From assembly GCA_965200555.1 (NCBI GenBank), contig OZ241365.1, positions 1,768,442 to 1,832,441 on the forward strand: a stretch of DNA of 64,000 bases, read 5' to 3'. The stretch comes from Dehalococcoidia bacterium (GTDB lineage: Bacteria; Chloroflexota; Dehalococcoidia; UBA2979). Position numbers and translations under genes: made by a program. Positions 4,657 to 61,189 of this stretch are shown here, piece after piece. The notes beneath the pieces are model-generated. The model had not been told where the DNA came from. It worked only from the letters and a program-made list of their open reading frames with translations, and made no database searches. Within the stretch, counting starts at the first letter, position 1. Each line of letters starts with the position of its first letter.

Positions 4657-4664
4657 TCCGGGCG

Positions 4665-4725
4665 GTTCTGCCGACGCCGTGATTCGCATCGCGCGCAGCC
4701 TGCTGCATTCGGAGGGCGCGCCGTG
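4665..4725 (+). repeat. Orphan copy of the lipoprotein family 3' tail repeat (...gccgtgattcgcatcgcgcgcagcctgctgc...ggcgcgccgtgagg)
   Basis: In frame +2 it encodes ...SADAVIRIARSLLHSEGAP*, a homologue of the C-terminal tails of both LRR lipoproteins. It lies downstream of the RCC1 lipoprotein stop and directly before the next gene start. Confidence 0.65.
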
Positions 4726-6735
4726 AGGCGTATGCTCGCGGCGGGAGGCCGTCCGATGCGCCCTCGACGCCTCGCCACCGCCGTCGCGCTCCTCGCCGCG
4801 CTCGCGCTCGCCCTCGCCGCGTGCACCGGCAGCGGGCTGCCGCCCGCCGCCGCGCCCGAGGCGTCGCCGGCGGCCGAGGCGCCCTCGGCGCCCGCGCCCG
4901 CCTCGCCGCCGGAGCAGGCGTGCGCGAACGGCGTCGCGGTCGAGGAGACCGCCCCCGCCTCCGAGGGCGGCCCCTGCGTCCCCGCGCGCTACACGGCGGC
5001 CTGCTCGAAGGGCGTCGCGGTGCCGGACCCCGAGGCGAACCGCGGGCTGGTGCGCGACTGCGCGCTGCTGCTGCTCGCGCGCGACCCGCTGCGCGGGACG
5101 GCTCCGCTCAACTGGAGCGAGGACCTGCCGATCGGGGCGTGGGACGGACTCGGCTTCAACGGCGACCCGCCGCGGGTGGACGGCGTGCACCTCCGCGACC
5201 GCGGCCTCGACGGCGTCATCCCTCACTGGCTGGGCGGGCTGACGGAGCTGGTCTACCTGCACCTCGGGGCGCAGAACCACCCGACGGGGCCGATCCCGGC
5301 GGGCCTCGGCGGCCTGCGCGACCTGGCCGGGCTCCACCTCACCAACAACCGGCTGACCGGCGTCATTCCCGACCTCAGCGGCACGAACCTGTCGCGCCTC
5401 GACCTGCGCGGCAACGAGCTCACCGGCGGCGTGCCCGCGTGGCTGGGCGAGATGACGAACCTGCGCGTCCTGAACCTGCGCGGCAACGAGATCACGGGCG
5501 GCGTCCCCGCGCGGCTGGGCGAACTGACGAACCTGCGCGTCCTGAGCCTGCAGGACAACGAGCTGACGGGGCCGATCCCGCGCTCGATCGGCAGGCTGCC
5601 GCTGCTGCGCGAGGTGCGGCTGGCGCAGAACGAGCTGACGGGCTGCGTGCCGTCCCCGCTCGAGGACGTGGCGCCGTCCGGGCCGCGCAACGACGTGGCC
5701 GAGCTCGGCCTGCCGTGGTGCCTGCGCTACGCCCTCGACGCCACCGGCGCGGTCGCATCGGCCGGCCGCTGGGCGATCCTCGACGCCGGGGGCGGTGCGG
5801 ACGCGGGCGGCGGCGGCGTTTCGGGGCAGGCGGAGGCGCCGCCCGCGGTGATCACGACGTGGGAGGGGCTGCGCTCCGAGGCTGCCACGCTGCGCGTCCA
5901 CCAGACCGACGCCGCCGGCACGTCGTGGGCAGCCGAGTTCGGCGCCGTCTCCGAGGACGATCTCTTCGAGTGGCGCAAGGCGTCCGACTGCTGGGTGCGC
6001 TACCGCGTCACCGGCGATCCCGTGCGGCCCGCGGCAGGATCCGGGCGCTGGGAGTTCCCGGTCGAGTGGATGACCTATGCCGCCACCGGCGAGGGCTGCA
6101 CCGGCGCCGTCGGCGCCTCCGCCGTGCTCAGCGCCGACGAGTCCGTGCCCATGGTCATCCCCGCGACCGCGATCACCTCGCCGGTGCGGCACGGAATCGT
6201 GTTGCTCTCCCCCGAGAGCTGGGAGGGCGAAACGGAAACAAGTGAATGGCGCGAACCGCTGCCTACGTTTTCCGGGGGAGTGAACGGCGCCAGCGGGTCG
6301 AGCGCCGACGCCGCGCCCATCGAATTCGGTGTAACGGACAGCCTCGAAGAGGCACGCCGATTCCGGTATTGGCGCGACCCTGTGTTGCCTCCCGGCTGGA
6401 CATTCTTGGGGGTGGAAGCGGGCGGCCACAATGCCCCCTACTTCGGATACTGTGCCGGATGGACGGGAGTCTACGTGTGCGTGAAGGGTGGAGGGTGGCG
6501 TCCGTGGCATCTTTCGGCGAACCCGGTCCATGGTTTGGTCAGCGAGCCGCGCGTCATTGATGGACGCCCGGCGATCGTCCAGTATGCACTTGCGCCCCGG
6601 TATTATAGCGTGAGCGTCTGGATTTTCGACAGGGAAACGGGAATCGAGTATTCGGTAGTTGGCATTGATCATACCTTGCGTGACAGCAACACCGAGGCCG
6701 CGATCGCGATAGCGCGCAGCCTGCTGCCGGATTAG
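4723..6735 (+). CDS. Lipoprotein with 7 plant-type leucine-rich repeats, a conserved central module and a diverged C-terminal domain ending ...AIAIARSLLPD
   Basis: Signal peptide/lipobox (LALALAAC) and a P/A-rich linker are followed by tandem 24-aa LRRs (LxxLxLxxNxLTGxIPxxLGxLxx). The central block LPWCLRY...WEFPVEWMTYAATGEGCTGAVGA is about 90% identical to the downstream paralogue. The C-terminal domain has TGIEY and AIAIARSLLP motifs. Confidence 0.85.
   Translation: MRRMLAAGGRPMRPRRLATAVALLAALALALAACTGSGLPPAAAPEASPAAEAPSAPAPASPPEQACANGVAVEETAPASEGGPCVPARYTAACSKGVAVPDPEANRGLVRDCALLLLARDPLRGTAPLNWSEDLPIGAWDGLGFNGDPPRVDGVHLRDRGLDGVIPHWLGGLTELVYLHLGAQNHPTGPIPAGLGGLRDLAGLHLTNNRLTGVIPDLSGTNLSRLDLRGNELTGGVPAWLGEMTNLRVLNLRGNEITGGVPARLGELTNLRVLSLQDNELTGPIPRSIGRLPLLREVRLAQNELTGCVPSPLEDVAPSGPRNDVAELGLPWCLRYALDATGAVASAGRWAILDAGGGADAGGGGVSGQAEAPPAVITTWEGLRSEAATLRVHQTDAAGTSWAAEFGAVSEDDLFEWRKASDCWVRYRVTGDPVRPAAGSGRWEFPVEWMTYAATGEGCTGAVGASAVLSADESVPMVIPATAITSPVRHGIVLLSPESWEGETETSEWREPLPTFSGGVNGASGSSADAAPIEFGVTDSLEEARRFRYWRDPVLPPGWTFLGVEAGGHNAPYFGYCAGWTGVYVCVKGGGWRPWHLSANPVHGLVSEPRVIDGRPAIVQYALAPRYYSVSVWIFDRETGIEYSVVGIDHTLRDSNTEAAIAIARSLLPD
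5240..5660 (+). repeat. Tandem 72-bp coding repeats (7 LRR units) inside the LRR lipoprotein gene
   Basis: Periodic 24-aa LxxLxLxxNxLTGxIPxxLGxLxx units with matching 72-nt periodicity. Confidence 0.8.
5701..6125 (+). repeat. Conserved central module, copy 1 (about 90% identical to 7351..7730)
   Basis: The stretch LGLPWCLRY...WAILDAGG...TWEGLRSEAATLRVHQTDA.GTSWA.EFGAVSE.DLFEWRKASDCWVRY.VTG.PVRP..GSGRWEFPVEWMTYAATGEGCTGAVGA is shared almost verbatim at DNA level. Confidence 0.8.
6697..6732 (+). repeat. Family 3' tail repeat at the end of LRR lipoprotein 1 (AAIAIARSLLPD*)
   Basis: gcgatcgcgatagcgcgcagcctgctgcc is shared with the copies at about 4690 and about 8415. Confidence 0.65.
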
Positions 6736-10007: not shown

Positions 10008-11084
10008 GTGAGCGCCCTGCCCGACGCCCCTCCCGCCGCCGCCCGCTACGCCGCCGCCGGCGTCGACGTCGCGGCCGCCGAGGCCGGCCTGCCCGCGCTG
10101 CGCGCGCTCGCCGGGCGCGCGCGCCGCCCCGAGGTGATCGGCGGCGTCGGCGCCTTCGCCGGCCTCTTCCGCCTCGGCGCCTCGCGCTGGCGCGATCCGG
10201 TGCTCGTCGCCAGCGCCGACGGCGTCGGCACCAAGCTGCTCGTCGCAGCCGCCCTCGGACGCTACGGCGACGTCGGGCGCGACCTCGTGAACCACTGCGT
10301 CAACGACGTGCTGACCGCCGGCGCCGAGCCGCTGTTCTTCCTCGACTACCTCGCGACGGCGGGCCTGCCGCAGGAGCGGCGCGCCGAGATCGTCGCCGGC
10401 GTCGCCGAGGCCTGCGCGGCGAACGGCGCGGCGCTGCTCGGCGGCGAGACCGCCGACATGCCCGATCTCTACCGCCCCGGCGACTACGACCTCGCCGGCT
10501 TCCTCGTCGGCGCCGCGGAGCGCGAGGCGATCCTCGACGGCTCGCGCATCGAGGCCGGCGACGCGCTGATCGCGCTGCCCTCGACCGGCCTCCAGACCAA
10601 CGGCTACTCGCTCGTGCGCGAGATCTTCGGCGTGGCGAAGGGGCGCGGCGAGGCGCACGACCGCGCCGTGCTCGAACGGCGCGTCGAGGAGCTGGGAGGC
10701 ACGCTCGGCGACGCGCTGCTGGCGGTGCACGGCTCCTTCCTCGGGGCGGTGCGCCCGCTGCTGCCGCGGCTGCGCGGGATCGCGCACGTCACCGGCGGCG
10801 GGCTGCCCGGCAACCTGCCGCGCATCCTGCCCGACGGCCTCGCCGCCCGCGTCGACCTCGCGGGCTGGGAGCCGCCGCCGCTGTTCGGCCACATCCAGCG
10901 CGAGGGCGCCGTCGGCGACGGCGAGATGTTCCGCGTCTTCAACATGGGCGTCGGCATGGCGCTCGCCGCCGCGCCCGCCGACGCCGGCGCCGTGCTCGCC
11001 TCCGCGCCCGGCGCGTGGCGGCTCGGCGAGGTCGAGCCGCGGCCGGAGGGCGCGCCCGCCGTGCTCGGGCTGCCGGAGGACTGA
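10008..11084 (+). CDS. purM: Phosphoribosylformylglycinamidine cyclo-ligase (AIR synthetase)
   Basis: PurM motifs are present (GVGAFAGLF, DGVGTKL, NHCVNDVLTAGAEPLFFLDYLA, GGETADMP, HVTGGGL). Confidence 0.95.
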   Translation: MSALPDAPPAAARYAAAGVDVAAAEAGLPALRALAGRARRPEVIGGVGAFAGLFRLGASRWRDPVLVASADGVGTKLLVAAALGRYGDVGRDLVNHCVNDVLTAGAEPLFFLDYLATAGLPQERRAEIVAGVAEACAANGAALLGGETADMPDLYRPGDYDLAGFLVGAAEREAILDGSRIEAGDALIALPSTGLQTNGYSLVREIFGVAKGRGEAHDRAVLERRVEELGGTLGDALLAVHGSFLGAVRPLLPRLRGIAHVTGGGLPGNLPRILPDGLAARVDLAGWEPPPLFGHIQREGAVGDGEMFRVFNMGVGMALAAAPADAGAVLASAPGAWRLGEVEPRPEGAPAVLGLPED

Positions 11085-11088
11085 GGCC

Positions 11089-12643
11089 TGTGCGCGCGAT
11101 CCTGAGCGTGTACGACAAGACGGGCGCCGTGGAGCTCGCGCGCGGGCTGCGCGAACTCGGCTGGGAGCTGTGCTCGACCGGCGGCACGCAGCGCGCCCTC
11201 GCCGACGCGGGCGTGCCCGCGACGGGCGTCGCCGACCTCACCGGCAGCCCCGAAATCCTCGGCGGGCGCGTCAAGTCGCTGCACCCGAGGGTCTACGGCG
11301 GCCTGCTCGCGCGCGGCGACCGCGAGGACGACGCCGCCGAGCTCGCCGAGCACGGCATCGAGCCGTTCGGCCTCGTCGCCTGCAACCTCTACCCCTTCGC
11401 CGACACGGTGCGCGGCGGCGCCTCGCCGGCCGAGGCGCTGGAGGAGATCGACATCGGCGGCCCCTCGATGATCCGCGCGGCGGCGAAGAACCACCCGTGG
11501 GTGATCCCGATCGTCGATCCCGCCGACTACGGGGGCGTCCTCGAGGCGCTGCGCGCGGGCGGGCCGGACGCGGCACGGCGGCGCGAGCTGGCGGCGAAGG
11601 CGTTCGCGCACGTCGCGCACTACGACGCCGCCGTCGCCGAGTACCTGCGCGGCGGGGACGACCCGCTGCCCGGGCGCCTGACCCTCGGCCTCACGCGCGC
11701 CGCCGAGCTGCGCTACGGCGAGAACCCGCACCAGCGCGGCGCCTTCTACGCCATCGGCTCCGCGCTCGCGCCGCCCGAGGGCGTCGGCGCGTTCGAGCAG
11801 CACCACGGCAAGGCGCTGTCGTACGTCAACCTGCTCGACGCCGACGCGGCGCTCAACCTCGTGGCGGAGAGCGCGCAGCCGGCGGTGGCGATCGTCAAGC
11901 ACGCCAACCCCTGCTGCTTCGCCGCCGGCGACGCGCCGATCGCCGAGCTCTACGGGCGCGCCCTCGCGGGCGGCGACGCCGTCTCCGCCTACGGCGGCAT
12001 CGTCGCCGCCAACCGCCCGCTCGACCTCGCCTTCGCCTCGGCGCTGCGCGAGGTCCCGAGTCCCCTCGACGGGGGGCGCATGTTCTTCGAGATCGTGATC
12101 GCGCCGGGCTGCGAGGCCGACGGCCTCGAACGGCTCAGGGGCAAGTCGCGCGACCTCCGCATCCTCACCGCGCCCGCGGGCGCGCCCCGCCCACGCCTCG
12201 AATTCCGCTCGCTGCGGGGCGGGATGCTCGTGCAGGAGGCCGACCCCGGCGGCGAGCCGCGCTTCGAGGCGGTGAGCGAGCGCCCCCCGACGGAGGCCGA
12301 GCTGGCCGACCTGCGGCTGGCGTGGCTGGTGGCGCGCCACGTCAAGTCGAACGCGATCGCGCTGGTGCGCGGCGGCGTCCTCGTGGGCATGGGGGCGGGG
12401 CAGCCGAACCGCGTCGAGAGCGCGCGCCTCGCGGTGCGCGGCGCGGGCGAGCGGGCGGCGGGCGCGGCGCTGGCCTCGGACGCCTTCTTCCCGTTCCCCG
12501 ACTCGCTCGAGGTGGCGGGCGCGGCCGGCGTGACGGCGGCGGCCCACCCCGGCGGCTCGATCCGCGACGCCGACTCGATCGCCGCCGCCAACGCCCTCGG
12601 GATGGCGCTCGTCGCCACCGGCGCGCGCCACTTCCGCCACTAG
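11089..12643 (+). CDS. purH: Bifunctional AICAR transformylase / IMP cyclohydrolase
   Basis: The GTG start follows 4 nt after the purM stop. The MGS-like IMPCH domain is present (ILSVYDKTG...STGGT) and the AICARFT domain follows (KHANPCCFA..., GGSIRD). Confidence 0.95.
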
Positions 12644-12649
12644 GCGAGG

Positions 12650-14839
12650 GTGCGGGGACGCATGAAGATCGGCGCGATCGCGGTGCTCGCGGCGGCGATG
12701 GCGATCGCGGCGGCGGCCGCGCTGCCCGGCCCCGCGCCCTCGGAGGCGCAGACCGCGGAGTCCGAGGCGCGCATCGCCGCTCGCCGCCTCGCCGACGGCC
12801 GCGTCGAGTTCGCGCTCCAGCGGCGCACCGCCTCGGGGTGGGGCGAGCGCATCCTGCCCGCGCGGCGCTTCTTCCCCGCCGCGGGCGGAAGCGGCTGGCT
12901 CCACTCCTCGCCCGTGACCGCGGGCGGCGCCGAAGCGCGCATCTCGGCGCGCCGCCTCGCGGACGGCCGCGTCGAGTTCGCGCTCCAGCCGCGCGGCGCC
13001 TCGGGGTGGGGCGAGCGCATCCTGCCGCGGCAACGCTTCTTCCCGGCCGCGGGTGGGGAGCGCTGGCTCAACTCGTCGCCGGTCACGCTTGAAGAGGCGG
13101 AGCCGTCCGCTGCACAAGATGTGCGCCGTTTCGGACCAGTCGCCGGGGACAACCCCGCGTGGTCCCCGGACGGACGGTGGATTGCTTTCACCTCGGATCG
13201 TGATGGAGACACCAAAGTCTATGTGATGAATGCCGATGGCTCGGACATGAGGCGCTTGACTGACTACACTGCTTCTGCTTGGAACGGACCACCGGCGTGG
13301 TCTCCGGACGGACAGCGGATAGCGTTCTCCTCGAACATCGGGATCGTCGTGATGAACGCCGACGGAACGAACGCAAGACGTTTGGGCGGAGCAGGCCGAC
13401 TGGCATGGTCTCCGGACGGGCAGCGAATTGCGTTCGTCCAGGACGATCCCCACCCAATGGTCTACCCTAGTCTTTATGTGATGAACGCCGACGGAACCGG
13501 CATAAAGCTTCTTTCCAATCTTATTAGTTGGCAGGGTCGCCCAGCGTGGTCGCCAGATGGCAGAATTACGTTCGTTTCGCGCCGCGATGGTGGGGACAGC
13601 GACATTTGGGTGGTGAACGCTGACGGGTCGGGCATGAGTCGCTTGACCGACGACTTCGGCTGGGACGGACAGCCGGAGTGGTCGCCGGACGGTCGGTGGC
13701 TCGCGTTCGCCTCCGATCGTGATGGTGATAGGGAATTGTATGTGATGAACGCCGATGGTACGAACGTGAGGCGTTTGACCGACAACGCTGTTTGGGACGG
13801 AGACCCGGCGTGGTCGCCGGACGGTCGACGGATTGCGTTCGCCTCCGGCCGTGATGGTGATGAGGAAGTGTATGTGATGAACGCCGACGGTACGGACGTG
13901 AGACGCTTGACCGACAACGATTGGAGAGACGGAGACCCGGCGTGGTCTCCGGACGGGCGGCGGATCGCATTCGCCTTGGATCACGAAGACGGTCGGGCAA
14001 TCTACGTGACGAGCGCCGAGGCGCCAGCTCTTAGCTCTTTCACGCGGCTGACCGGCAACTCCTTCGCTGAGAGGGGCTTGGCGTGGTCGCCGGACGGGCA
14101 GCAGCTCGCGTTCGCGTCCAATCGTGATGGCGACTGGGAAGTCTACACGATGGACGCCGACGGTTCGGACGTGAGGCGCTTGACCGACAACGCCGTTCAG
14201 GATGCAGAGCCTGCGTGGTCGCCGGACGGGCAACAGATCGCGTTCACCTCCGACCGTGATGGTGACTGGGAGGTGTATGCGATGAATGCCGACGGCTCGA
14301 ACGTGAGGCCCTTGACCGATCACTCTGGCGACGATGTGGCGTCGGCATGGTCGCCGGACGGGCAGCGGATTGCGTTCGCTTCCGACCGTGATGGCGACTG
14401 GGAAATCTTTGTGATGAACGCCAACGGGACAAAGGTGAAGCGCGCGACTCACTCCTTCGCATGGGACACGGCTCCGACATGGTCGCCGACTGGACATCGA
14501 ATTGCGTTCATCTCGAATCGCGATGGAGATGCCGATATCTATGTAATGAATGCCGACGGCTCCCGCGTGAGGAACTTGACCAACAACGCCGTCGCCGATG
14601 CCTATCCGGTATGGTCTCCGGATGGACGTTCGATTGCCTTCTCTTCGAGACTCGATGGAGATTCCGACCGCGAAAGAGATTGGGAGCTCTATGTGATGAA
14701 CGCCGACGGTTCGGAGATAAGGCGTCTGACCGACAACCTCTCCGATGAGTGGGACCCGGCGTGGTCGCCGGACGGGAAGCTGATCGCGTTCGCCTCCGAT
14801 CGCGACGGCGACCTCGACATCTACGTGATCGAGCCTTAG
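12650..14839 (+). CDS. Secreted TolB-like PD40 beta-propeller repeat protein with an N-terminal tandem-duplicated ~55-aa module of unknown function
   Basis: Signal peptide, then 2x (RI[AS]ARRLADGRVEFAL...GWGERILP..RFFPAAGG..WL.SSPVT). About 13 PD40-type units follow (WSPDG.[RQ]IAF.S.RDGD.E[VI]Y[VA]MNADG[ST]..RRLTDN). The repeat region is visibly lower in GC than its surroundings. Confidence 0.85.
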   Translation: MRGRMKIGAIAVLAAAMAIAAAAALPGPAPSEAQTAESEARIAARRLADGRVEFALQRRTASGWGERILPARRFFPAAGGSGWLHSSPVTAGGAEARISARRLADGRVEFALQPRGASGWGERILPRQRFFPAAGGERWLNSSPVTLEEAEPSAAQDVRRFGPVAGDNPAWSPDGRWIAFTSDRDGDTKVYVMNADGSDMRRLTDYTASAWNGPPAWSPDGQRIAFSSNIGIVVMNADGTNARRLGGAGRLAWSPDGQRIAFVQDDPHPMVYPSLYVMNADGTGIKLLSNLISWQGRPAWSPDGRITFVSRRDGGDSDIWVVNADGSGMSRLTDDFGWDGQPEWSPDGRWLAFASDRDGDRELYVMNADGTNVRRLTDNAVWDGDPAWSPDGRRIAFASGRDGDEEVYVMNADGTDVRRLTDNDWRDGDPAWSPDGRRIAFALDHEDGRAIYVTSAEAPALSSFTRLTGNSFAERGLAWSPDGQQLAFASNRDGDWEVYTMDADGSDVRRLTDNAVQDAEPAWSPDGQQIAFTSDRDGDWEVYAMNADGSNVRPLTDHSGDDVASAWSPDGQRIAFASDRDGDWEIFVMNANGTKVKRATHSFAWDTAPTWSPTGHRIAFISNRDGDADIYVMNADGSRVRNLTNNAVADAYPVWSPDGRSIAFSSRLDGDSDRERDWELYVMNADGSEIRRLTDNLSDEWDPAWSPDGKLIAFASDRDGDLDIYVIEP
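12760..13090 (+). repeat. Tandem duplication (2 x about 165 bp) encoding the 'RIxARRLADGRVEFAL' module in the PD40 protein
   Basis: Two consecutive about 55-aa units with about 75% amino-acid identity. Confidence 0.7.
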
Positions 14840-14871
14840 GGCATCGCGAACGTACCGGGAGGGGGAACACG

Positions 14872-15597
14872 ATGGCCAGCGTCGACCTCGTACTGCCCGT
14901 GTACAACGAGGAGGCGATCCTCGAGCGCAGCACGGAGACGGTGCTCGCGTGGACCGGGGCGCATCCCGAACACGAGTGGCGCGTCGTGATCGCGGACAAC
15001 GCCTCGGAGGACGGCACGCTGGCGATCGCGCGGGCGCTGGAGGCGCGGCACGAGGGCCGCGTGGCGGCGCTGCACCTGCCGGTCAAGGGGCGCGGCATCG
15101 CCGTCAAGACGGCGTGGCTGACCTCGCCGGCCGAGGTGCTGGCGTTCATGGACGTCGACCTCTCGACGGACATCGCGCACATCCCGGACATCGTCGATCC
15201 GATCGCGGACGGGGAGGCGGACGTGGCGTTCGGGACGCGGCTGCATCCCGATTCGGAGACGGAGCGGGGGTGGCGGCGCGAGATCGTGTCGCAGGTCTAC
15301 ATCCGGCTGGTGCGCCACGTCGGGGGGCTGCGGGTGACGGACGCGCAGTGCGGGTTCAAGGCGGTGAGCCGCGAGGCGGCGCGGGCGCTGCTGCCGCTGG
15401 TGGAGGCGACGGGCTGGTTCTTCGACTCGGAGCTGCTGCTGGTGGCGCAGGAGAACGGCTACCGGCTGCGCGAGGCGCCGGTGCGCTGGATCGAGGACCG
15501 CGACAGCCGCGTCTCGATCCTCGGGGCGGTGGCCGAGGACCTGCGGGCGCTGTGGCGGATGCGGCGCGACGGGGTGCCGCGGGTGGGCGGGCGTTGA
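14872..15597 (+). CDS. Family 2 glycosyltransferase (polyprenyl-phosphate sugar transferase-like)
   Basis: Translation VDLVLPVYNEE...VVIADNASEDGT...FMDVDLSTD...QCGFKAV matches the GT2 DxD / GtrB-Dpm1-like pattern. The ATG at 14872 is preceded by GGGAGGGGG. Confidence 0.8.
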   Translation: MASVDLVLPVYNEEAILERSTETVLAWTGAHPEHEWRVVIADNASEDGTLAIARALEARHEGRVAALHLPVKGRGIAVKTAWLTSPAEVLAFMDVDLSTDIAHIPDIVDPIADGEADVAFGTRLHPDSETERGWRREIVSQVYIRLVRHVGGLRVTDAQCGFKAVSREAARALLPLVEATGWFFDSELLLVAQENGYRLREAPVRWIEDRDSRVSILGAVAEDLRALWRMRRDGVPRVGGR

Positions 15598-15873
15598 CCT
15601 TAGTTGGGGGGCGTCGCTAGGATCGCCGCTGCCTGCGGGCGGAGCGCGCGCGGGCGTCGGAAGGCCGGGCGCGCGGGCGCGTCCGGGGCGGGCAGCGGAG
15701 GCGCCATGATCTTCGGCGAGGTCGGCGAGGCGATGGAGCTGACCATCATCTTCGTGCTGATGACCGCCGCGATGGCCGCGCTCGTGCTGTTCGGCAAGTG
15801 GTGGGAAGCGTAGCGCGCGGAGCGCGCGGCGCCGCCGGCGGGCGGCAGGCGCCGGATCGAGGGGGAACGGCGG

Positions 15874-16629
15874 GTGGCGGCCACCGAACGTCCCGAAGGG
15901 CGTGCGCTCGGCGATCGCGCGTACGAGTTCCTCGTGAACAGCCGCGTCTGGAAGTCGATCTTCCGCATCGGCTACCCGAACACGCCGCGCAACCAGATGC
16001 TGGCGGTGGCGACGAACGTCTTCCTGCACCTCCATCCGACGCGCGTGCACCGCACGCACGTCCGCATCACGCACACCTACTGCCTCGGGGGGCTGTCGTT
16101 CTTCCTGTTCCTCGGGCTGACCGTGACCGGCGTGCTGCTGATGTTCTACTACGTGCCCTCGGTGGAACGGGCCTACGCCGACATGCAGGCGCTGCAGACG
16201 GACGTGCGCTTCGGGATGCTGCTGCGGAACACCCACCGCTGGATGGCGCACGGGATGGTCATCACGGTGATGCTGCACATGATGCGGGTGTTCTACACCG
16301 GCGCGTACAAGCCGCCGCGCGAGTTCAACTGGATCGTGGGCGTGGTGCTGCTGGTGCTGACGCTGCTGCTGTCGTTCACCGGCTACCTGCTGCCGTGGGA
16401 CGAGCTGGCGTTCTGGGCGATCACCGTCGGCACCAACATGATCGGCTCCGACCCGGTGCTGGGCGAGGTCAACCGCTTCGTGCTGATCGGCGGCTTCGAG
16501 GTGGGGCAGAACGCGCTGATCCGCTTCTACACGCTGCACGTCGTGGGGCTGCCGTTGCTGGCGGCGATCTTCATGGCCGTGCACTTCTGGCGCATCCGCC
16601 GCGACGGCGGACTCGCGCGCCCGCTGTAG
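15874..16629 (+). CDS. Cytochrome b6-like subunit (N-terminal half of a split cytochrome b)
   Basis: GTG start after GAGGGGGAA. The four-helix haem-binding core carries conserved His ([15 protein letters not shown]...[15 protein letters not shown]...[13 protein letters not shown]...[12 protein letters not shown]). Length 251 aa, as expected for the split b6 form. Confidence 0.9.
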
Positions 16630-16641
16630 GAGGCGCCGGCG

Positions 16642-17577
16642 ATGGTGGCCGAGGCCCCCGCTCCCCGCTCCGCCGTCCAGCGCGGCGCCACGCCGGGCGT
16701 GCGCCCGCGCCGCCAGCGCGAGGAGGAGCTGCTCGTCTGGCCCGACCTCGTGTTCGTCGAGTTCATCGCGGCGCTGGTGTTCACGCTGACGTTCGCGCTG
16801 CTGGCGATCCTGATCAACGCGCCGCTGCAGGACCGCGCCAACCCGGCCAACACGCCGAACCCCTCGAAGGCGCCGTGGTACTTCCTCAACCTGCAGGAGC
16901 TGCTGATCCACATGCACCCGGCGCTGGCCGGCGTGATCGTGCCCACCGTGTTCCTCGTCGCGCTGGCCGCCGTGCCCTACTTCGACACCTCGAACGAGGA
17001 GCAGGGGCGCTGGCTGAAGACGCCGCGCGCGTGGCCGAACATGCTGATCGGCCTCGCCGTGGGCACGATCGGCACGTGGGCGCTGATCGTCTACGACTCG
17101 GCCAAGCACGTCGTGCTGTACGAGCGGGCGACGCTGCAGAGCCGCGGGTTCGACGCCTTCCCGCCGTTCCTCGCCGACGAGCCGCTGCGGACGTGGCCGG
17201 AGGGCCTCAACTGGCTGCGGAGCGCGCGCAACCTACAGACCGACATCGCGTGGCCGTCGGAGCTGACCGGCGTGCCGCTGGGCGAGACGTTCGTGCGTAC
17301 GGACCTGCTGGGGCTGCCGCGCGGCTCGATCCGCTGGAACGTGCCCGCGTGGATCGTGGAGCAGGCGATCCCGATCGGGCTCATGATCGGGCTGCCGGTG
17401 CTGCTCTCGCTGGTCGCGTGGCGCACGGGGCTGGCGAAGACGCGGCGGGACCACATGATCCTGCTGTTCTCCGGCTGGGTGGCGTCGTGGCTGGTGCTGA
17501 CGATCGCCGGCACGTACTTCCGGGGCGCGGGCCTCGAGCTGCTGTGGCCGTGGGACGTGAAGCCGGCCGAATCGTAG
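16642..17577 (+). CDS. Cytochrome b C-terminal-domain subunit (subunit IV-like, extended)
   Basis: WPDLVFVEF...APWYFLNLQELL matches the PEWYFLP-type motif of the cytochrome b C-terminal domain / PetD. It is an extended 311-aa membrane protein directly downstream of cyt b6. Confidence 0.8.
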   Translation: MVAEAPAPRSAVQRGATPGVRPRRQREEELLVWPDLVFVEFIAALVFTLTFALLAILINAPLQDRANPANTPNPSKAPWYFLNLQELLIHMHPALAGVIVPTVFLVALAAVPYFDTSNEEQGRWLKTPRAWPNMLIGLAVGTIGTWALIVYDSAKHVVLYERATLQSRGFDAFPPFLADEPLRTWPEGLNWLRSARNLQTDIAWPSELTGVPLGETFVRTDLLGLPRGSIRWNVPAWIVEQAIPIGLMIGLPVLLSLVAWRTGLAKTRRDHMILLFSGWVASWLVLTIAGTYFRGAGLELLWPWDVKPAES

Positions 17578-17587
17578 GAGCGACCGG

Positions 17588-18268
17588 GTGACGAGCGAGA
17601 CACCGACCGAGGCCGCGGCGACGCCGGAGCGCGTCACCGACTCCTGGCGCGAGGCGATCGCCGCGCGGCGCACGCAGGCCGCCGACGGCGCCGCCGTGCC
17701 GGGCGCGCAGGTCAGCCGCCCCGAACGCGCCGAGGTCTCCCGCCGCAACTTCATCCGCGGCGCCTTCTGGAGCGGCCTCGGCCTCGGGCTGCTCGGCTCC
17801 GTGGCCACGCTGCTCGACTTCCTCTACCCGCGCGGGATCGAGGGCTTCGGCGGGCCGGTGCCGGCCGGCAACGTCTCGTCGTTCCCGCGCGGCGGGGACC
17901 CGCAGCACTTCCTCACCGGCCAGTTCTGGCTCGCCAACCTCGACCCGGGCGAGACGCGCAGCGGCGGCAGCGGCGGCGGCGCGGGCCTGATCGCCCTCTG
18001 GCACCGCTGCCCCCACCTCGGCTGCACCGTGCCCTGGCGCACCGGCTTCAGCTTCGACGGCAACCAGGGCTGGTACCGCTGCCCCTGCCACGGCTCGACC
18101 TACACCAAGTCCGGCATCCGCGTCTTCGGCCCCGCCCCGCGCTCGATGACCACGATGCGCGTCGACGTCGACGACGCCGGCAACATCACCGTCCAGACCG
18201 GCGACCGCACGCCGGGCAGCCCCACCAACCCCGAACGCGCCGTCTCGCACCCGCTGCTGCCGACCTAG
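17588..18268 (+). CDS. Rieske [2Fe-2S] iron-sulfur subunit with Tat signal
   Basis: Twin-arginine motif RRNFIRGAFWSG. Rieske boxes CPHLGC ... CPCHGS. Confidence 0.9.
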   Translation: MTSETPTEAAATPERVTDSWREAIAARRTQAADGAAVPGAQVSRPERAEVSRRNFIRGAFWSGLGLGLLGSVATLLDFLYPRGIEGFGGPVPAGNVSSFPRGGDPQHFLTGQFWLANLDPGETRSGGSGGGAGLIALWHRCPHLGCTVPWRTGFSFDGNQGWYRCPCHGSTYTKSGIRVFGPAPRSMTTMRVDVDDAGNITVQTGDRTPGSPTNPERAVSHPLLPT

Positions 18269-18304
18269 CGCCCGCTCCGCGAGGCCCGCCGGGCCGGAGG
18301 TGAC

Positions 18305-19372
18305 ATGAACACCAGCAAGCAGGTCAACGTGATGATCGGGCTGCTGTTCGTGACCTTCCTCATCCTCAGCGCCTACCTCGTCAACGAGTCCAACCGCCAG
18401 GACGTCGAGAGCGCCGAGATCACCGAGCGCAACGCCGAGCGCGGCGCGCGGCTGTTCGTCCAGAACTGCCGCACCTGCCACGGCCTCGACGGCAGCGGCG
18501 GCATCGGCGCCGCCGTCAACAGCGACGCCTTCCTCATCCTCGAGGACGGCAACGCCTACGGCCTCCCCGCCACTCCCGACGCCGAGGCCGTCCAGATCCG
18601 CACCTACCTGCGCGAGACCATCGAGTGCGGCCGCCCCGGCACCTACATGCAGACGTGGTCCCAGCGCTACGGCGGCTCCCTCTCCGACACCCAGATCAAC
18701 CACCTCGTCACCCTCATCACCAACGACCCCTCCGGCAAGCACGACTTCTGGGACCTCGTCCGCACCGAGGGCGACCACGCCGACGAGGAGCAGTACGGCG
18801 CCGTCCTCGAAGGCGAGCTCGGCCGCCACCCGACGATCGAGGAGGTGCGCGAGCGCAGCGAGGCCGAGACGGTCGTGCTCGACCCCACGGCCCTCACCGT
18901 GAACACCGAGTCCTGCGGCAACTACCAGCCCGCGACGAAGGCCGCCTTCCGCAACCGCGACCCCTTCAGCGACGCTCCCCCCGTCGTCGCGACGCCCGAT
19001 CCCGGCGACGCCGCGCCCACTCCGGCCGCGCCCGTCGGCGACGGCGAGGGCGTGGCCGTGCTGATGACGGAGTGGGAGATGGCGACCGACGACACGATCG
19101 AGGCCGGCACGATCACCTTCCAGGTCCGCAACGAGGGCGCCGTCGCCCACGAGTTCGCCGTGATCCGCACCGACATCGCCGTCGACGGGCTGCCCATCGA
19201 CGGCGCGGTCGCCGACGAGGCCGGCCTCGACGTGCTGGGCCGCATTCCCGAGTTCGGGTCCGGCTCGGCGCAGGCGATCACGCTCGACCTGACGCCGGGC
19301 GCCTACCTGCTGATCTGCAACGTCCCGGCCCACTACGCGCTGGGCATGGCGACGGCCATCACCGTCGAATAA
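18305..19372 (+). CDS. Membrane-anchored mono-haem cytochrome c fused to a C-terminal cupredoxin (type-1 copper) domain
   Basis: The N-terminal TM helix is followed by the CxxCH haem motif (NCRTCHG). The C-terminal beta-domain carries blue-copper ligand spacing (AHEF ... CNVPAHYALGM). Confidence 0.8.
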   Translation: MNTSKQVNVMIGLLFVTFLILSAYLVNESNRQDVESAEITERNAERGARLFVQNCRTCHGLDGSGGIGAAVNSDAFLILEDGNAYGLPATPDAEAVQIRTYLRETIECGRPGTYMQTWSQRYGGSLSDTQINHLVTLITNDPSGKHDFWDLVRTEGDHADEEQYGAVLEGELGRHPTIEEVRERSEAETVVLDPTALTVNTESCGNYQPATKAAFRNRDPFSDAPPVVATPDPGDAAPTPAAPVGDGEGVAVLMTEWEMATDDTIEAGTITFQVRNEGAVAHEFAVIRTDIAVDGLPIDGAVADEAGLDVLGRIPEFGSGSAQAITLDLTPGAYLLICNVPAHYALGMATAITVE

Positions 19373-19429
19373 CGGGCCGCGAGGCGAACCGGACGGCGCG
19401 GGGAACGCGCCGGCAGAGGGGGATACGGC

Positions 19430-19549
19430 ATGGCGGAAGTCGAGACCGGCAAGCGCTACCGCTGCAACGACTGCGGCGCCGAGTTCATCGTCACCCGCGG
19501 CGGCCCCGGCGCGCTGCGCTGCGGCGACCACGAGCTCGAGCAGATCTAG
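19430..19549 (+). CDS. 39-aa zinc-ribbon-like small protein (MAEVETGKRYRCNDCGAEFIVTRGGPGALRCGDHELEQI)
   Basis: ATG preceded by AGAGGGGGA. It has four Cys in CxxC...C..H arrangement. It is absent from the ORF track only because of the length cut-off. It shares an N-terminal GKRYR motif with the next small ORF. Confidence 0.4.
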   Translation: MAEVETGKRYRCNDCGAEFIVTRGGPGALRCGDHELEQI

Positions 19550-19560
19550 GGGGGCCGGCG

Positions 19561-19704
19561 ATGGCTGTGGCACTGGGCAAGCGCTACCGCGACGAGCAGT
19601 CCGAGGTCGAGGTGCTGTGCATCAAGCCCGGCGAGTGCGACCTCAACGTCGACGGGCGCGGCATGGAGGAGCTGCAGCCGAAGGTGCTGCCCTCCGCCGA
19701 TTAG
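19561..19704 (+). CDS. 47-aa small protein paralogous to the preceding one (MAVALGKRYRDEQSEVEVLCIKPGECDLNVDGRGMEELQPKVLPSAD)
   Basis: ATG preceded by a G-rich SD-like stretch. It begins 12 nt after the previous small ORF's stop. It shares the GKRYR motif and two Cys with its neighbour. Confidence 0.35.
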   Translation: MAVALGKRYRDEQSEVEVLCIKPGECDLNVDGRGMEELQPKVLPSAD

Positions 19705-19843
19705 ATCCCGCCGCCTTGCGGCGCAACCGGGCGCGCGGCGGGCAGCCGCGCGCTCGCCGTGCGTCCTGCGGCCCCTCGCCCCCGCGCGCGGCGCAGGGCG
19801 TACCCTGTGGGCGCGACGGGCGGGAAGCGGCGGGAACGCTGCC

Positions 19844-20272
19844 ATGACGGAGTACGAGGATGACCCCGGTGAGGCCACGGACGCCGAGCGGCTGGCTGCC
19901 GCGCTCGCCGCGTTCGGGCGGCGCGTGGCCGAGGCCGCCGAGCGCGCCCCGCGCGGCGCGATGACGCTGGACGGCGCGACCGCCATCGCCGAGGGCATCG
20001 CCGAGCGCATTGAGATCTACCGCGAGCTCGCCGCCGCCGAGTGGGCGCAGGTCGTCGCCGCGCTGAGCGCGGGCGGCGCGATCGGCGAGGACGAGGCGGT
20101 GCGGCGGGCCGTCGCGATGGCGCGTCCCGCCGTCGAGGCGCTCGAAGCCATCGACGCGGCGCTCGCCCGCGCCGCCTCCGCCAACGCGCGCGCCGCCGAG
20201 TCGCTGCGGGCCCTGCGCGCGCTGTTCACCGCCGCGGAGCCGCCGCCCGGCGGCGCGGAGGCGGCGCCGTGA
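19844..20272 (+). CDS. Hypothetical Ala-rich soluble protein
   Basis: 142-aa ORF with protein-like composition and an ATG start. Its stop overlaps the GTG of the next gene (GTGA), which suggests translational coupling. Confidence 0.45.
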   Translation: MTEYEDDPGEATDAERLAAALAAFGRRVAEAAERAPRGAMTLDGATAIAEGIAERIEIYRELAAAEWAQVVAALSAGGAIGEDEAVRRAVAMARPAVEALEAIDAALARAASANARAAESLRALRALFTAAEPPPGGAEAAP

Positions 20273-29115: not shown

Positions 29116-29343
29116 CTAGTTCGGCGAGGGCGCGTCGCGGTAGCGGGGCGAGAGGCCGGCCAGCGCCATCTCCGCGATTTCGAGCGCCGACTCCACCGTC
29201 TCCTCGCAGTTCCGCGCCTCAATGGCCTCGCCCAGTTCCTTGACGGCGTCGGCCAGCAGCTCCAGTTCGTCTTCCTCGGCGGCCTGCCGGATGGCGCGCA
29301 GCCGCGTCTCGGGGCTGCCCGTGGGGACGATCGTTCCGCTCAT
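29116..29343 (-). CDS. Small helical hypothetical protein, divergent from the DNA methyltransferase gene
   Basis: 75 aa ([75 protein letters not shown]). The remainder of the listed 143-aa ORF is a GC artefact. No HTH is evident. Confidence 0.35.
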
Positions 29344-29392
29344 CTTCGCGCTCCTCGGAATGCGGCGCCTGTGCTTCGTGGATTGTATGTTC

Positions 29393-29422
29393 TGGACACT
29401 GCGCGCGCAACAGGGCAGAATA
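29393..29422 (+). promoter_or_regulatory. Putative promoter in the AT-richer divergent region upstream of dcm (TGGACA-18-AGAATA)
   Basis: Locally lower-GC stretch between the divergent small ORF and dcm. Valid only if dcm starts at GTG 29456 rather than ATG 29387. Confidence 0.2.
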
Positions 29423-29455
29423 CGCGCCCGTGGGAGTGGCGGGGCGGAGGGCGCA

Positions 29456-30487
29456 GTGGGCGGCGACTTCCGCTTCGTCGATCTGTTCGCGGGCATCGGC
29501 GGCCTGCGCCGGGGCTTCGACGCCGCGGGCGGACGCTGCGTGTTCACCTCCGAGTGGGACAGGCACGCGCAGGCGACCTACCGCGCCAACTTCGGAGACG
29601 CCCCCGATCACGTCATGGCCGGCGACATCCGCGGGGTGGCCGTGGCGGACGTGCCCGAGCACGACCTGCTGCTGGCCGGCTTCCCCTGCCAGCCGTTCTC
29701 GATCGCGGGCGTGAGCAAGAAGAACGCGATCGGCCAGCCGCACGGCTTCCGCTGCGACTCGCAGGGCACGCTGTTCTTCGACGCCGCGCGCATCATCGCC
29801 CACCGCCGCCCCGAGGCGTTCGTGCTCGAGAACGTCAAGAACCTCGTCAACCACGACCGGGGCCGCACCTTCCGCGTCATCCGCGAGACGCTGGAGGACG
29901 ACCTCGGCTACCACGTCACGGCGCGCGTGATCAACGCGAAGGGCTACGTCCCCCAGAACCGCGAGCGCATCTTCATCGCCGGCTTCCGCGACCGCGACGA
30001 CGTGAGCCTCGACGACATGTACGTCCCCGACCCCGGCGACGGGCCGAAGCTGCGCTCCGTCCTCCACCCCGAGGACGGCAACGAGGCGCCGGAGCCCCCC
30101 TACACCGATAGCAAGGGCCGCGTCCGCGACCGCTATGCGCTCACCGACCACCTCTGGCAATACCTGCAGGACTACGCGGAGAAGCACCGGCGGCGCGGCA
30201 ACGGCTTCGGGTTCGGCCTCGTGGGGCCGGAGGACGTGGCGCGCACGCTCTCGGCCCGCTACTACAAGGACGGCTCCGAGATTCTGGTGCGGCGCGAGGG
30301 CGGGAACCCGCGCCGCCTGACGCCTCGCGAGTGCGCGCGGCTCATGGGGTTCGACCGGCCGGGCGAGCCGCCGTTCGCCATCCCGGTCTCCGACACGCAG
30401 GCCTACCGCCAGTTCGGCAACGCCGTCGCCGCGCCGGTCGGGGACGCGGTGGCGGCGTTCGTCGTCCGCCGCCTGCGCGGAGGCTGA
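29456..30487 (+). CDS. dcm: DNA (cytosine-5)-methyltransferase (Dcm/M.EcoRII-like); alternative upstream ATG at 29387
   Basis: All C5-MTase motifs are present: [45 protein letters not shown]. The GTG at 29456 has GGAGGG five nt upstream. Confidence 0.9.
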
Positions 30488-30490
30488 GCG

Positions 30491-30943
30491 ATGGCCGACG
30501 TGGTGGACGCCGCGACGCGCAGCCGCATGATGGCGGGCATCCGCGGGCGCGACACGCGGCCCGAACTCGTGATCCGGCGCGGCCTCCACGCGCGCGGCTA
30601 CCGCTACCGCCTCTACTCGCGCCGCCTGCCGGGCCGCCCCGACCTCGCGTTCACGTCGCGCAAGGCGGTGATCTTCGTCCAGGGCTGCTTCTGGCACGGC
30701 CACGACTGCCCGCTCTTCAGGTGGCCCGCCACCCGCGCCGGGTGGTGGCGCGCGAAGATCGAGGCCACCCGCGAGCGCGACCGCGCCGTGCGCGACCGCC
30801 TCGCCGCGATGGGCTGGCGTCAGCTGCGCGTGTGGGAATGCGCCCTCAAGGGCCCGCAGCGCCGCGATCCAGACGCGGTGCTCGACGAGATCGCCGCGTG
30901 GCTCGACGGCGACGAGCCGGAGCGCGACACGAGGGGGGCGTAA
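30491..30943 (+). CDS. vsr: Very-short-patch-repair endonuclease
   Basis: TRSRMMAGIRGRDTRPE...LPGRPDLAF...AVIFVQGCFWHGHDC...GWRQLRVWEC is the Vsr family signature. It lies directly downstream of dcm. Confidence 0.9.
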   Translation: MADVVDAATRSRMMAGIRGRDTRPELVIRRGLHARGYRYRLYSRRLPGRPDLAFTSRKAVIFVQGCFWHGHDCPLFRWPATRAGWWRAKIEATRERDRAVRDRLAAMGWRQLRVWECALKGPQRRDPDAVLDEIAAWLDGDEPERDTRGA

Positions 30944-59795: not shown

Positions 59796-59819
59796 GCGCC
59801 GCACGGAAAGGAACCCGGC

Positions 59820-60470
59820 ATGACGAGCGACACGGCGGCGGCGGCGCCCTACCCCGCGCGGCTCGACGTCGAGTACCCCGAGGAGGGGCTGAGCCGCCTC
59901 ACGACGTTCTTCCGCGCGATCTGGGCGATCCCGATCCTCGCCGTGCTGACCGCGCTGACCGGCGGCGGCCCCCGGATCCAGCAGCTGGGGGACGACGCCT
60001 GGCTGATCGTGGCCTCGTCGGCCGGCCTGCTGGTGGTGCCGGTGCTGCTGATGATCCTCTTCCGGCGCAAGTACCCGCGCTGGTGGTTCGACTGGCACCT
60101 CGAACTGGCGCGCTTCTCGACGCGCGTCTGGGCGTACCTGCTGCTGATGCGCGACGAGTACCCCTCGACCGACGAGGAGCAGGCCGTCCGCCTCGACCTC
60201 GACTACCCGGACGCGGAGCGCGACCTCAACCGCTGGCTGCCGCTGGTGAAGTGGCTGCTGGCGATCCCGCATTTCGCGATCCTGACCGCGCTGGGCGTGA
60301 TCGCGGGGGTGCTGGTCGTCGTCGCGTGGTTCGCGATCCTGTTCACGGGGCGCTACCCGCGCGGCATCTTCGGCTTCCTCCTCGGCGTCTCGCGCTGGTG
60401 GCTGCGGGTCGAGGCCTACTCGCTGCTGCTGATCACCGACCGCTACCCGCCGTTCGGCTTCGACGACTAG
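59820..60470 (+). CDS. DUF4389 domain membrane protein (copy 1)
   Basis: RLTTFFRAIWAIPILAV..., WLPLVKWLLAIPHFAIL..., FTGRYPRGIFGFLLGVSRWWLRV..., and a terminal DRYPPF are present. Confidence 0.7.
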   Translation: MTSDTAAAAPYPARLDVEYPEEGLSRLTTFFRAIWAIPILAVLTALTGGGPRIQQLGDDAWLIVASSAGLLVVPVLLMILFRRKYPRWWFDWHLELARFSTRVWAYLLLMRDEYPSTDEEQAVRLDLDYPDAERDLNRWLPLVKWLLAIPHFAILTALGVIAGVLVVVAWFAILFTGRYPRGIFGFLLGVSRWWLRVEAYSLLLITDRYPPFGFDD

Positions 60471-60610
60471 GCGGGCGGCGCCCCCGGACGTGGCGGGGCC
60501 CCGCCGCGTCCGGGGCTGCGCGAGCGCGGCGCGGCGCGCTATAGTGCGCGCCCGCGCCGCACGCCGCCGGAAGGCGGCGGCGGGCGGCGGACGTGTGGAG
60601 GGAACGAACG

Positions 60611-61189
60611 ATGGCGGCGATGGACAGCGGCTATCCGGTCACCTTCGACGTGGCCTACCCCGAGTCGCCGAACCGCTTCCTGATCCTGATCCGCTGGCTG
60701 CTGGTGGTGCCGCACCTGATCGTGCTCAACGTCCTCGAGACGCTCGTCGGGCTGGGGACGCTGGTCGGGTTCTTCGCGATCCTGTTCACGAAGAACTACC
60801 CGGACTTCATCTGGCGCTTCGTCGTGGGCGTCATGCGCTGGACCCAGAACGCCACCGCCTACACGCTCTTCCTCGACCGCTATCCGCCGTTCAGCCTGAC
60901 CGAGGGGCAGTACGAGCCGGTCACGTTCACGGTGGAGAAGCCGGCCGCGTTCAACCGCTGGCTGCCGCTCGTGAAGTGGCTGCTGATGCTGCCGCACATC
61001 GCGATCCTGATCGTGCTGTCCGCGATCGCGACGTTCGCGGTCGTCCTGCTCGCCCTCGGCGTGCTGTTCACCGGGCGCTACCCGCGCGGCCTGTTCAACT
61101 ACCTCGTCGGCGTCGGGCGCTGGGGCGCGCGCGTCAACGCCTACGGCCTGCTGCTGGTGGACCGCTACCCGCCGTTCTCGCTGCGCTAG
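60611..61189 (+). CDS. DUF4389 domain membrane protein (copy 2, tandem paralogue)
   Basis: Same architecture and motifs as copy 1 (RWLLVVPHLIV..., WLPLVKWLLMLPHIAIL..., FTGRYPRGLFNYLVGVGRWGARV..., DRYPPF). Start chosen at MAAMDSGYP. Confidence 0.7.
   Translation: MAAMDSGYPVTFDVAYPESPNRFLILIRWLLVVPHLIVLNVLETLVGLGTLVGFFAILFTKNYPDFIWRFVVGVMRWTQNATAYTLFLDRYPPFSLTEGQYEPVTFTVEKPAAFNRWLPLVKWLLMLPHIAILIVLSAIATFAVVLLALGVLFTGRYPRGLFNYLVGVGRWGARVNAYGLLLVDRYPPFSLR

Follow-up and report, generated by a model that had tools for sequence, protein, structure and literature searches.

A predicted copper-tailed cytochrome c subunit in a Rieske/cytochrome b6-type complex of Dehalococcoidia

The 64,000-nucleotide stretch analysed here (the window; contig OZ241365.1 of a Dehalococcoidia bacterium) contains four consecutive genes at 15874-19372 that appear to encode a respiratory quinol-oxidising Rieske/cytochrome b6-type complex with a split cytochrome b. 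The fourth subunit combines a haem c site with a C-terminal domain that, judging from its sequence and model, is an auracyanin-like type-1 cupredoxin. Across related species this C-terminal part behaves as a putative exchangeable carrier module, which holds copper in some lineages and haem in most. Taken as a whole, these observations are, in our judgement, probably best explained by a tethered electron carrier built into complex III that delivers electrons to a terminal oxidase.

Architecture and conservation of the fourth subunit

The fourth subunit (355 residues; 18305-19372, + strand) consists of a transmembrane anchor, a class-I cytochrome c domain, a helical insert, a flexible linker and a type-1 cupredoxin, in that order. 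The anchor (residues 7-25; 18323..18379, +) has a hydropathy peak of 2.27 and lies within a long helix of the structural model (residues 3-54). The haem c site, C55-R-T-C58-H59 (18467..18481, +), is evident in the sequence and invariant in the family alignments, and Pfam places the surrounding domain in both Cytochrome_CBB3 (PF13442; 7.5e-7, 29.8 bits against a threshold of 27) and Cytochrom_C (PF00034; 25.8 against 21.3 bits). The tether, rich in proline, alanine and threonine (approximately residues 220-247; 18962..19045, +), contains the blocks with the lowest predicted local distance difference test (pLDDT) values (53-68) and has no secondary structure in the model; its length and sequence differ among homologues. 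The copper domain occupies residues 248-355 (19046..19369, +), with its ligands H282, C338, H343 and M348 found in two motifs, H282-E-F and C338-x4-H343-x3-G-M348.

The AlphaFold2 model of the subunit (pLDDT 85.5, predicted template modelling score 0.79) begins with a long helix, continues with the helical cytochrome domain and its insert and an unstructured stretch at about 220-247, and ends in an eight-stranded sandwich. All eight strands fall within residues 248-354, with 10-residue block pLDDT values of 90-96 from residue 251. When compared with the PDB by Foldseek, the top match is the auracyanin of Roseiflexus (6kol; E = 1.7e-8, TM-score 0.67), and further matches include Chloroflexus auracyanins B and A (1qhq and 2aan), rusticyanin and azurin. 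A phmmer comparison of the subunit with 6kol gives 2.7e-6. The Pfam family Copper-bind (PF00127) is matched at 2e-4 (22.2 bits against a cut-off of 21.2) with only residues 315-355 aligning, the Pfam SoxE model matches the cupredoxin domain weakly, and a search of a viral fold library returned generic β-sandwich matches only. It is the fold matches, with 6kol first among them, together with the invariant copper ligands that lead us to assign the domain as a type-1 cupredoxin of the auracyanin kind.

A search of 5.8 billion proteins yielded 282 homologues of the fourth subunit, and the named ones are all proteins from metagenome-assembled genomes (MAGs) of Chloroflexota/Dehalococcoidia, labelled at most ‘c-type cytochrome’. 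The haem-copper fusion is present in 83 of the top 120 protein clusters (90% identity; ENA, JGI, NCBI and Logan), and the same protein is found on four independent metagenome contigs. H282, C338, H343 and M348 are invariant in all 83 cupredoxin-type homologues, as are C55, C58, H59, M115, C108 and C204, and the metal loop C-x4-H-x4-M is found in each of the 85 cupredoxin domains examined. M115 is presumably the sixth haem ligand, and C108 and C204 possibly form a disulfide. An earlier reading of this locus from its sequence only had described the membrane anchor, the CxxCH site and the type-1 copper motif. All three are present, domain-resolved HMM searches and structure prediction agree on a cytochrome c followed by an auracyanin-like cupredoxin, and no loss of copper ligands is seen among the orthologues.

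An exchangeable tail module

Related loci were gathered from one genome per GTDB species, which gave 80 loci, all from Chloroflexota MAGs; 77 of these loci are complete. Its N-terminal 220 residues align throughout the family, and the C-terminal module alone varies. In 55 of the 77 loci the tail is a second CxxCH cytochrome c, of two sequence types referred to as cA and cB, and in 20 it is a single cupredoxin. One locus, L023, has two tandem cupredoxins (L023:7001-8386; 1/77), and another, L062, has a different cupredoxin with leucine at the axial position (L062:7001-7999; 1/77). Copper tails are therefore the minority among species (22/77), and 21 of them share the same metal loop. The combination of haem c and blue copper in one polypeptide, which had been called unusual, is unusual in this sense, but it is not rare in the clade when counted by protein clusters.

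The tail types are interleaved on a tree of the core subunits (neighbour-joining; concatenated b6, subunit IV and Rieske sequences, 74 taxa, 719 columns). The approximate Fitch minimum is 9 switches between copper and haem, or 10 when three states are allowed, and the copper group to which the window belongs is sister to a haem cA group. Searched exhaustively on its own, the cupredoxin domain yielded 3990 representatives at 50% identity, of which the nearest relatives are mostly lipoprotein-like stand-alone proteins of 130-200 residues or tandem arrays of up to six domains. In the tree of this domain, which has low resolution and lacks support values, the fused cupredoxins are not monophyletic; they are dispersed among the stand-alone ones in at least six groups, which correspond to clades of the core tree. 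Because the tails are interleaved on the core tree and the fused domains form several groups in the domain tree, the sequences point to a tail that has been repeatedly captured or replaced and not to one ancient fusion.

Two of the rarer forms deserve separate mention. In the L062 tail cupredoxin (FYCSVPGHREGGLVG) the axial methionine is replaced by leucine, as in high-potential type-1 sites, and this tail suggests an independent capture. Tandem cupredoxins are found not just on the L023 c subunit, with its two copies, but also in lipoproteins with 4-6 copies (P0029, P0241 and P0242), and such arrays may serve as extended copper wires.

The same modules on terminal oxidases

Tails of both kinds are also attached to subunits of cytochrome oxidase. 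The protein P0310 is an oxidase subunit II (CoxII; PF00116) with a C-terminal linker and cupredoxin, and this tail is 46% identical to residues 222-355 of the window protein (E = 4e-33). In P0245, oxidase subunit IV (CoxIV) is fused to cupredoxins. Among the best 120 CoxII relatives, 105 are plain, 9 have a type-1 copper tail and 3 have a cytochrome c plus a type-1 domain; the named ones all come from Dehalococcoidia or Chloroflexi MAGs. The haem tail shows the same relationship, with the cA domain of the c subunits being 40% identical to the caa3-type cytochrome c domain of one CoxII (E = 5e-23). By these alignments, complexes III and IV of this clade thus use the same two tail modules. Since identical types of tail are carried by the c subunit and by CoxII, the copper tail probably communicates with an oxidase; this is the best available evidence for that connection, and it is indirect.

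Copper-tailed CoxII proteins include P0310, P0387, P0388, P0392 and P0443, and their cupredoxins are of the same family as the tail of the c subunit. Oxidases of this form look undescribed.

Core subunits of the complex

The first gene (15874-16629, +) encodes a cytochrome b6-type subunit of 251 residues, a four-helix cytochrome b that Pfam assigns to Cytochrome_B (PF00033, 1e-45). Its ligand pairs for haems bL and bH, His121/His135 and His222/His237, are invariant in 74 of 74 sequences. The motif Y-C70-LGG, which takes the form [FYW]CLGG in all 74, corresponds to the CxGG signature to which haem cn is bound in b6f and indicates a probable haem cn. The closest solved relatives are the b6 proteins of chloroplasts and cyanobacteria (7e-51), with cytochrome b of bc1 complexes at ~1e-30. 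The subunit also scores 291.1 bits against the NCBIfam equivalog ExtP (‘selenite/tellurite reduction operon b-type cytochrome’), for which the cut-off is 290.

Subunit IV (311 residues; 16642-17577, +) is nearly twice the canonical length and contains no cysteine and no haem c site. Only residues 66-131 match the Pfam family Cytochrom_B_C (PF00032, 3e-6). Its five hydrophobic helices correspond to the three canonical ones, a loop of ~80-90 residues and two extra helices; in the AlphaFold2 model (pLDDT 67.7) they span residues 24-57, 93-114, 130-152, 234-262 and 268-295. A profile of the subunit has no match among PDB sequences, and its best NCBIfam match is ExtQ (1.4e-13, 51.2 bits against a cut-off of 150). 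The Qo motif, A77-P-W-Y80, is invariant in 74 of 74 sequences. This APWY has no acidic residue at the position where PEWY has glutamate, which could affect how protons are released when menaquinol is oxidised.

The Rieske 2Fe-2S subunit (226 residues; 17588-18268, +) matches Pfam PF00355 (7.5e-7) and the NCBIfam b6f Rieske model (1e-15, under its cut-off), and its nearest solved relatives are Rieske proteins of the b6f type. It begins with a twin-arginine signal/anchor, S-R51-R52-NF, with a transmembrane segment at 58-79. The cluster-binding boxes CPHLGC and CPCHGS are invariant in 74 of 74 sequences, and the arginine pair is kept. Scores against the NCBIfam models of actinobacterial QcrCAB are far below their cut-offs (23.6 against 200 bits for QcrC, 109.7 against 500 for QcrB and 35.5 against 275 for QcrA). 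By sequence, the complex is b6-type but strictly speaking does not count as b6f: where b6f has cytochrome f (PetA) and the small subunits PetG/L/M/N, it has a class-I cytochrome c as its fourth subunit and the small peptide p35, described below, which matches no family. Nor is it, strictly taken, a QcrABC, QcrCAB or ExtPQ system.

The sequence-only reading had the four genes in exactly this place and order, and its description of a b6-type complex with split cytochrome b and a Rieske gene 3′ of the b subunits is borne out by the Pfam assignments and the invariant catalytic motifs. It had also drawn attention to the gene order and the extended subunit IV; neither is special to this locus. The order b6-subunit IV-Rieske-c is the same in 80 of 80 related loci, in which b6 is 80-94% identical, and subunit IV has 4070 homologues. 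This architecture is the standard of a large clade, though one known from metagenomes only and not a well-studied one.

A proposed route for electrons

In the arrangement that we favour, menaquinol would be oxidised at a Qo site made by b6 and subunit IV; we take the quinol to be menaquinol because of the phylum and the non-acidic APWY motif. One electron would take the path of the b haems and, probably, a haem cn. The second would be handed by the Rieske cluster to the fourth subunit, anchored in the membrane, where it would reach haem c and then, within one polypeptide, the type-1 copper. Held on a flexible tether of ~28 residues at the outer face of the membrane, the copper domain would act as a captive mobile carrier and reduce a terminal acceptor, most probably CuA of a haem-copper oxidase. 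In related species a tethered cytochrome c occupies the same position. Both the direction of transfer and the partners are inferred. A ‘built-in electron wire’ had already been suggested for this locus, and the suggestion gains support from the cytochrome c found at the same tail position in sister lineages and from the tails of CoxII.

Several points weigh against this arrangement. The Copper-bind score is barely above the Pfam threshold, the trees are neighbour-joining trees without support values, which makes the switch count approximate, and a terminal oxidase was looked for in the 64-kb window and none was found. The cupredoxin could also feed other periplasmic enzymes rather than an oxidase. 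It might give its electrons to copper nitrite reductase (NirK) or nitrous oxide reductase (NosZ), or might take input from an external donor, and so serve denitrification or lithotrophy and not O2 respiration. Blue copper proteins are established donors to NirK and NosZ in other bacteria, and in addition to the lack of an oxidase in the window, the very large cupredoxin family with its many stand-alone and tandem lipoprotein forms suggests several partners. We nonetheless consider this route unlikely, as CoxII and CoxIV proteins carry tails of the same family, the haem version of the tail corresponds to the cytochrome c domain of caa3-type CoxII, and nir and nos genes are not a recurrent feature around the operon in the 80 loci. 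The CoxII and CoxIV fusions and the caa3-type haem tail thus argue for oxidases as the usual partners of the tail. We find it more doubtful still that the cupredoxin is a copper-handling or structural domain (a chaperone, sensor or docking module) that leaves haem c as the sole electron exit. Cupredoxin folds do serve in copper trafficking, for example in PCuAC and in the N-domain of EfeO, and EfeO is the second-best structural match. However, the best matches are auracyanins, the full His-Cys-His-Met ligand set of a type-1 site is retained in 83 of 83 sequences and the metal loop in all 85 domains examined, and the replacement of the cupredoxin by a CxxCH cytochrome c in most species is sensible only for an electron carrier.

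The remaining alternatives concern the b subunits and the reality of the fusion. The b subunits might belong to an ExtPQ-like system, named after the cytochromes of selenite/tellurite-reduction operons, and not to a complex III operating a Q cycle, as could be read from the ExtP score of b6 and from ExtQ being the best NCBIfam match of subunit IV. We regard this as very improbable, since the ExtQ score is only a third of its cut-off, b6 passes the ExtP cut-off by a single bit and is equally b6f-like, and a Rieske protein and the Qo motif are conserved in every locus. The ExtPQ assignment was accordingly rejected, and the ExtP pass is most likely an annotation hazard. As for a frameshift or an assembly join of two genes, nothing specific speaks for it beyond the 5 of 120 database homologues that are truncated or frameshifted. 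The gene is a single uninterrupted frame with a third-position G+C content (GC3) of 0.97, and the same architecture recurs in 83 independent 90%-identity clusters and 22 species genomes. Conservation across clusters, genomes and the four independent contigs effectively refutes an artefact, to which we assign next to no probability.

Comparison with known systems

The b6f complex of cyanobacteria and chloroplasts, with plastocyanin or cytochrome c6, shares with the present complex the split b6/subunit IV pair, the haem-cn CxGG motif and the Rieske protein, and its b6 is the nearest solved relative. Its acceptor, too, can be a blue copper protein or, alternatively, a class-I cytochrome c. However, the present complex has no cytochrome f; its c subunit is a class-I cytochrome c with the anchor at the N-terminus. 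Subunit IV has five helices and APWY instead of PEWY, and b6, subunit IV, Rieske and c are encoded in one operon. The choice between copper and haem also differs in kind, as it lies in a fused tail fixed per lineage, whereas the soluble pair of b6f is switched by regulation. Within the same phylum, alternative complex III (ACIII) of Chloroflexus and Roseiflexus works with auracyanin, so that there too a membrane-held cupredoxin of this type takes electrons from a quinol oxidoreductase. There the cupredoxin is a separate anchored protein, whereas here it is fused to the c subunit of a Rieske/cytochrome b complex.

Two redox centres in series, which make a soluble carrier unneeded, are found in actinobacterial QcrCAB (bcc), with its dihaem QcrC and III2IV2 supercomplex, and in the c subunits, also dihaem, of Heliobacteria and epsilon-proteobacteria. 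Sister forms of the present subunit with two haems (55/77 species) are direct analogues. In the window protein, which has one CxxCH, the second centre is instead type-1 copper on a long disordered tether, whereas the second haem domain of QcrC is packed; moreover, cytochrome b is split here and QcrB is not. The QcrABC (b6c) complex of Bacillus is similar in that its cytochrome b is b6-type and has the cysteine for haem cn, a protein resembling subunit IV is separate from it and the exit is a class-I cytochrome c, and some homologues of the present subunit IV bear the JGI label ‘menaquinol-cytochrome c reductase cytochrome b/c subunit’. In Bacillus, however, subunit IV and cytochrome c form one protein and the Rieske gene comes first, whereas here subunit IV is free of cysteine, cytochrome c has its own gene and the Rieske gene is third.

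Archaeal Rieske/cytochrome b systems also employ blue copper, as in the SoxM complex of Sulfolobus with the sulfocyanin SoxE and in the plastocyanin-like subunits of Thaumarchaeota. In these systems the link from the bc-like module to the oxidase is a cupredoxin instead of a soluble cytochrome c. They are not known to contain an intermediate haem c, whereas haem c and copper are here present in one bacterial polypeptide.

Fusion of a cognate carrier to an enzyme through a linker is known from caa3 oxidases, in which cytochrome c is joined to subunit II, and from copper nitrite reductases (CuNiR) fused to cytochrome c or to a cupredoxin. In the present case the carrier is on the donor complex (III), instead of or besides the acceptor enzyme. 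Tethering of this kind in CuNiR is the subject of PMC13324648.

Small conserved genes flanking the operon

A gene for a 35-residue peptide with a single transmembrane segment (p35, MIFGEVGEAMELTIIFVLMTAAMAALVLFGKWWEA; 15706-15813, +) is conserved upstream of b6. It lies just 5′ of b6 in 74 of the 74 loci that extend there, with the motifs GE.GE...LGKWWE conserved, and independent gene callers also predict it on other contigs. Comparison of p35 with Pfam and the PDB gave no significant match. We infer that it is a probable small subunit of the complex.

Two further small genes follow the fourth subunit. The first encodes a desulforedoxin/zinc-ribbon-like protein of 39 residues (p39; 19430-19549, +) with cysteines in the pattern C12-x2-C15 ... 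C30 and a score of 23.7 bits against a threshold of 23 for the Pfam family Desulfoferrod_N. It is found directly 3′ of the fourth gene in all 77 loci that reach there. The PDB entries that it matches are zinc knuckles of a generic kind, with the matches inflated through C2H2 repeats. The second encodes a 47-residue protein (p47, MAVALGKRYRDEQS...LQPKVLPSAD; 19561-19704, +) that resembles a paralogue of p39 without the CxxC knuckle and is very highly conserved, with a copy in 77 of 77 loci; p47 has no significant match in Pfam or the PDB. The next gene downstream (19844-20272) is not conserved among the related loci. Position by itself does not show p39 and p47 to be part of the complex, because the housekeeping flanks (purM, purH, GT2, YqeY, 7TM-HD, S21 and purL/purQ) are also syntenic, in 57-72 of the 80 loci; the two are perhaps linked to it, by position only. 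The case for p35 is stronger because it is a membrane peptide, lies inside the interval between the promoter and b6, and is universal.

Novelty and significance

Searches of the full-text literature, outside which most subscription journals lie, found no description of a bc c subunit fused to a cupredoxin; a prior mention is possible. Ward et al. 2018 (PMC5826079) scored the ‘bc complex’ of Chloroflexi by presence or absence only, and Dibrova et al. 2017 (PMC5600118) do not mention Chloroflexi in their main text. Beyond the sequence-only reading, the analysis adds the repeated swapping of copper and haem tails, tail modules common to the c subunit and CoxII, and three conserved small genes that lack annotation.

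The usual description of a Rieske/cytochrome b complex has an unvarying c-type subunit as its exit and, apart from it, a soluble carrier. In the present case the carrier would be part of the complex, with copper or haem depending on the lineage and at least 9 exchanges in one clade. This amounts to a natural experiment in the wiring between the exit of complex III and its partners and in the substitution of iron for copper in respiration, and it offers candidate parts for engineered electron wires. A bolder proposal, which we put forward only tentatively and would not expect to hold in full, is that a single pool of tethered carrier modules supplies both complex III and complex IV, its members having been plugged repeatedly onto the c subunit and CoxII. 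A III-IV chain without soluble carriers would then be possible, running from haem c through type-1 copper to CuA, the exchanges would maybe be driven by the availability of iron versus copper, and p35, perhaps with p39 and p47, would be a new component. If true, such a pool would be the hard-wired counterpart of the switch between plastocyanin and cytochrome c6.

The locus also exposes gaps in annotation. The fourth gene is described as ‘c-type cytochrome’ only, subunit IV as a ‘hypothetical protein’, the three small genes are not annotated, and automatic annotation likely misnames b6 as ExtP.

Sequence context of the operon

All four large genes are on the + strand, separated by gaps of 10-36 nucleotides. 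The window has a G+C content of ~75%, and long open reading frames (ORFs) are found in every frame. The frames of the four large genes have a GC3 of 0.97-0.99 together with low second-position G+C (GC2), and for this reason we regard them as real genes. Antisense ORFs of 730-1297 residues at 10604-14497, 14836-17109 and 17381-19573 (all −) overlap real genes. As genes they were rejected, being Arg/Pro/Ala-rich shadows of the 75% G+C.

A sigma-70-like promoter site, TTGACC-18-TAGGAT (15594..15623, +), is a consensus match only. It sits between the stop codon of the upstream glycosyltransferase gene and the p35 gene and is the sole such site in 15300-20100, where shuffled sequences lead to an expectation of 0.1. 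A terminator scan found none, as expected at 75% G+C, and an Rfam scan of the entire window gave no match. The neighbours of the operon in the window are genes of purine and branched-chain amino acid metabolism.

A leucine-rich-repeat protein is encoded at 4657-6735 (+) and a long PD40/Tricorn-like β-propeller repeat protein at 12650-14839 (+), the latter between purH and the glycosyltransferase gene upstream of the operon; both are of eukaryote-like or surface-repeat type. A C-5 cytosine DNA methyltransferase gene is followed by one for a Vsr very-short-patch repair endonuclease at 29144-30943 (+). This pair adjoins a patch of lower G+C (0.67 vs ~0.75) and may be a mobile methylase module. 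Two DUF4389 membrane proteins are encoded in tandem at 59796-61189 (+), and in 28 related loci a DUF4389 gene is found ~6 kb downstream of the bc operon (for example L046:12712-13779).

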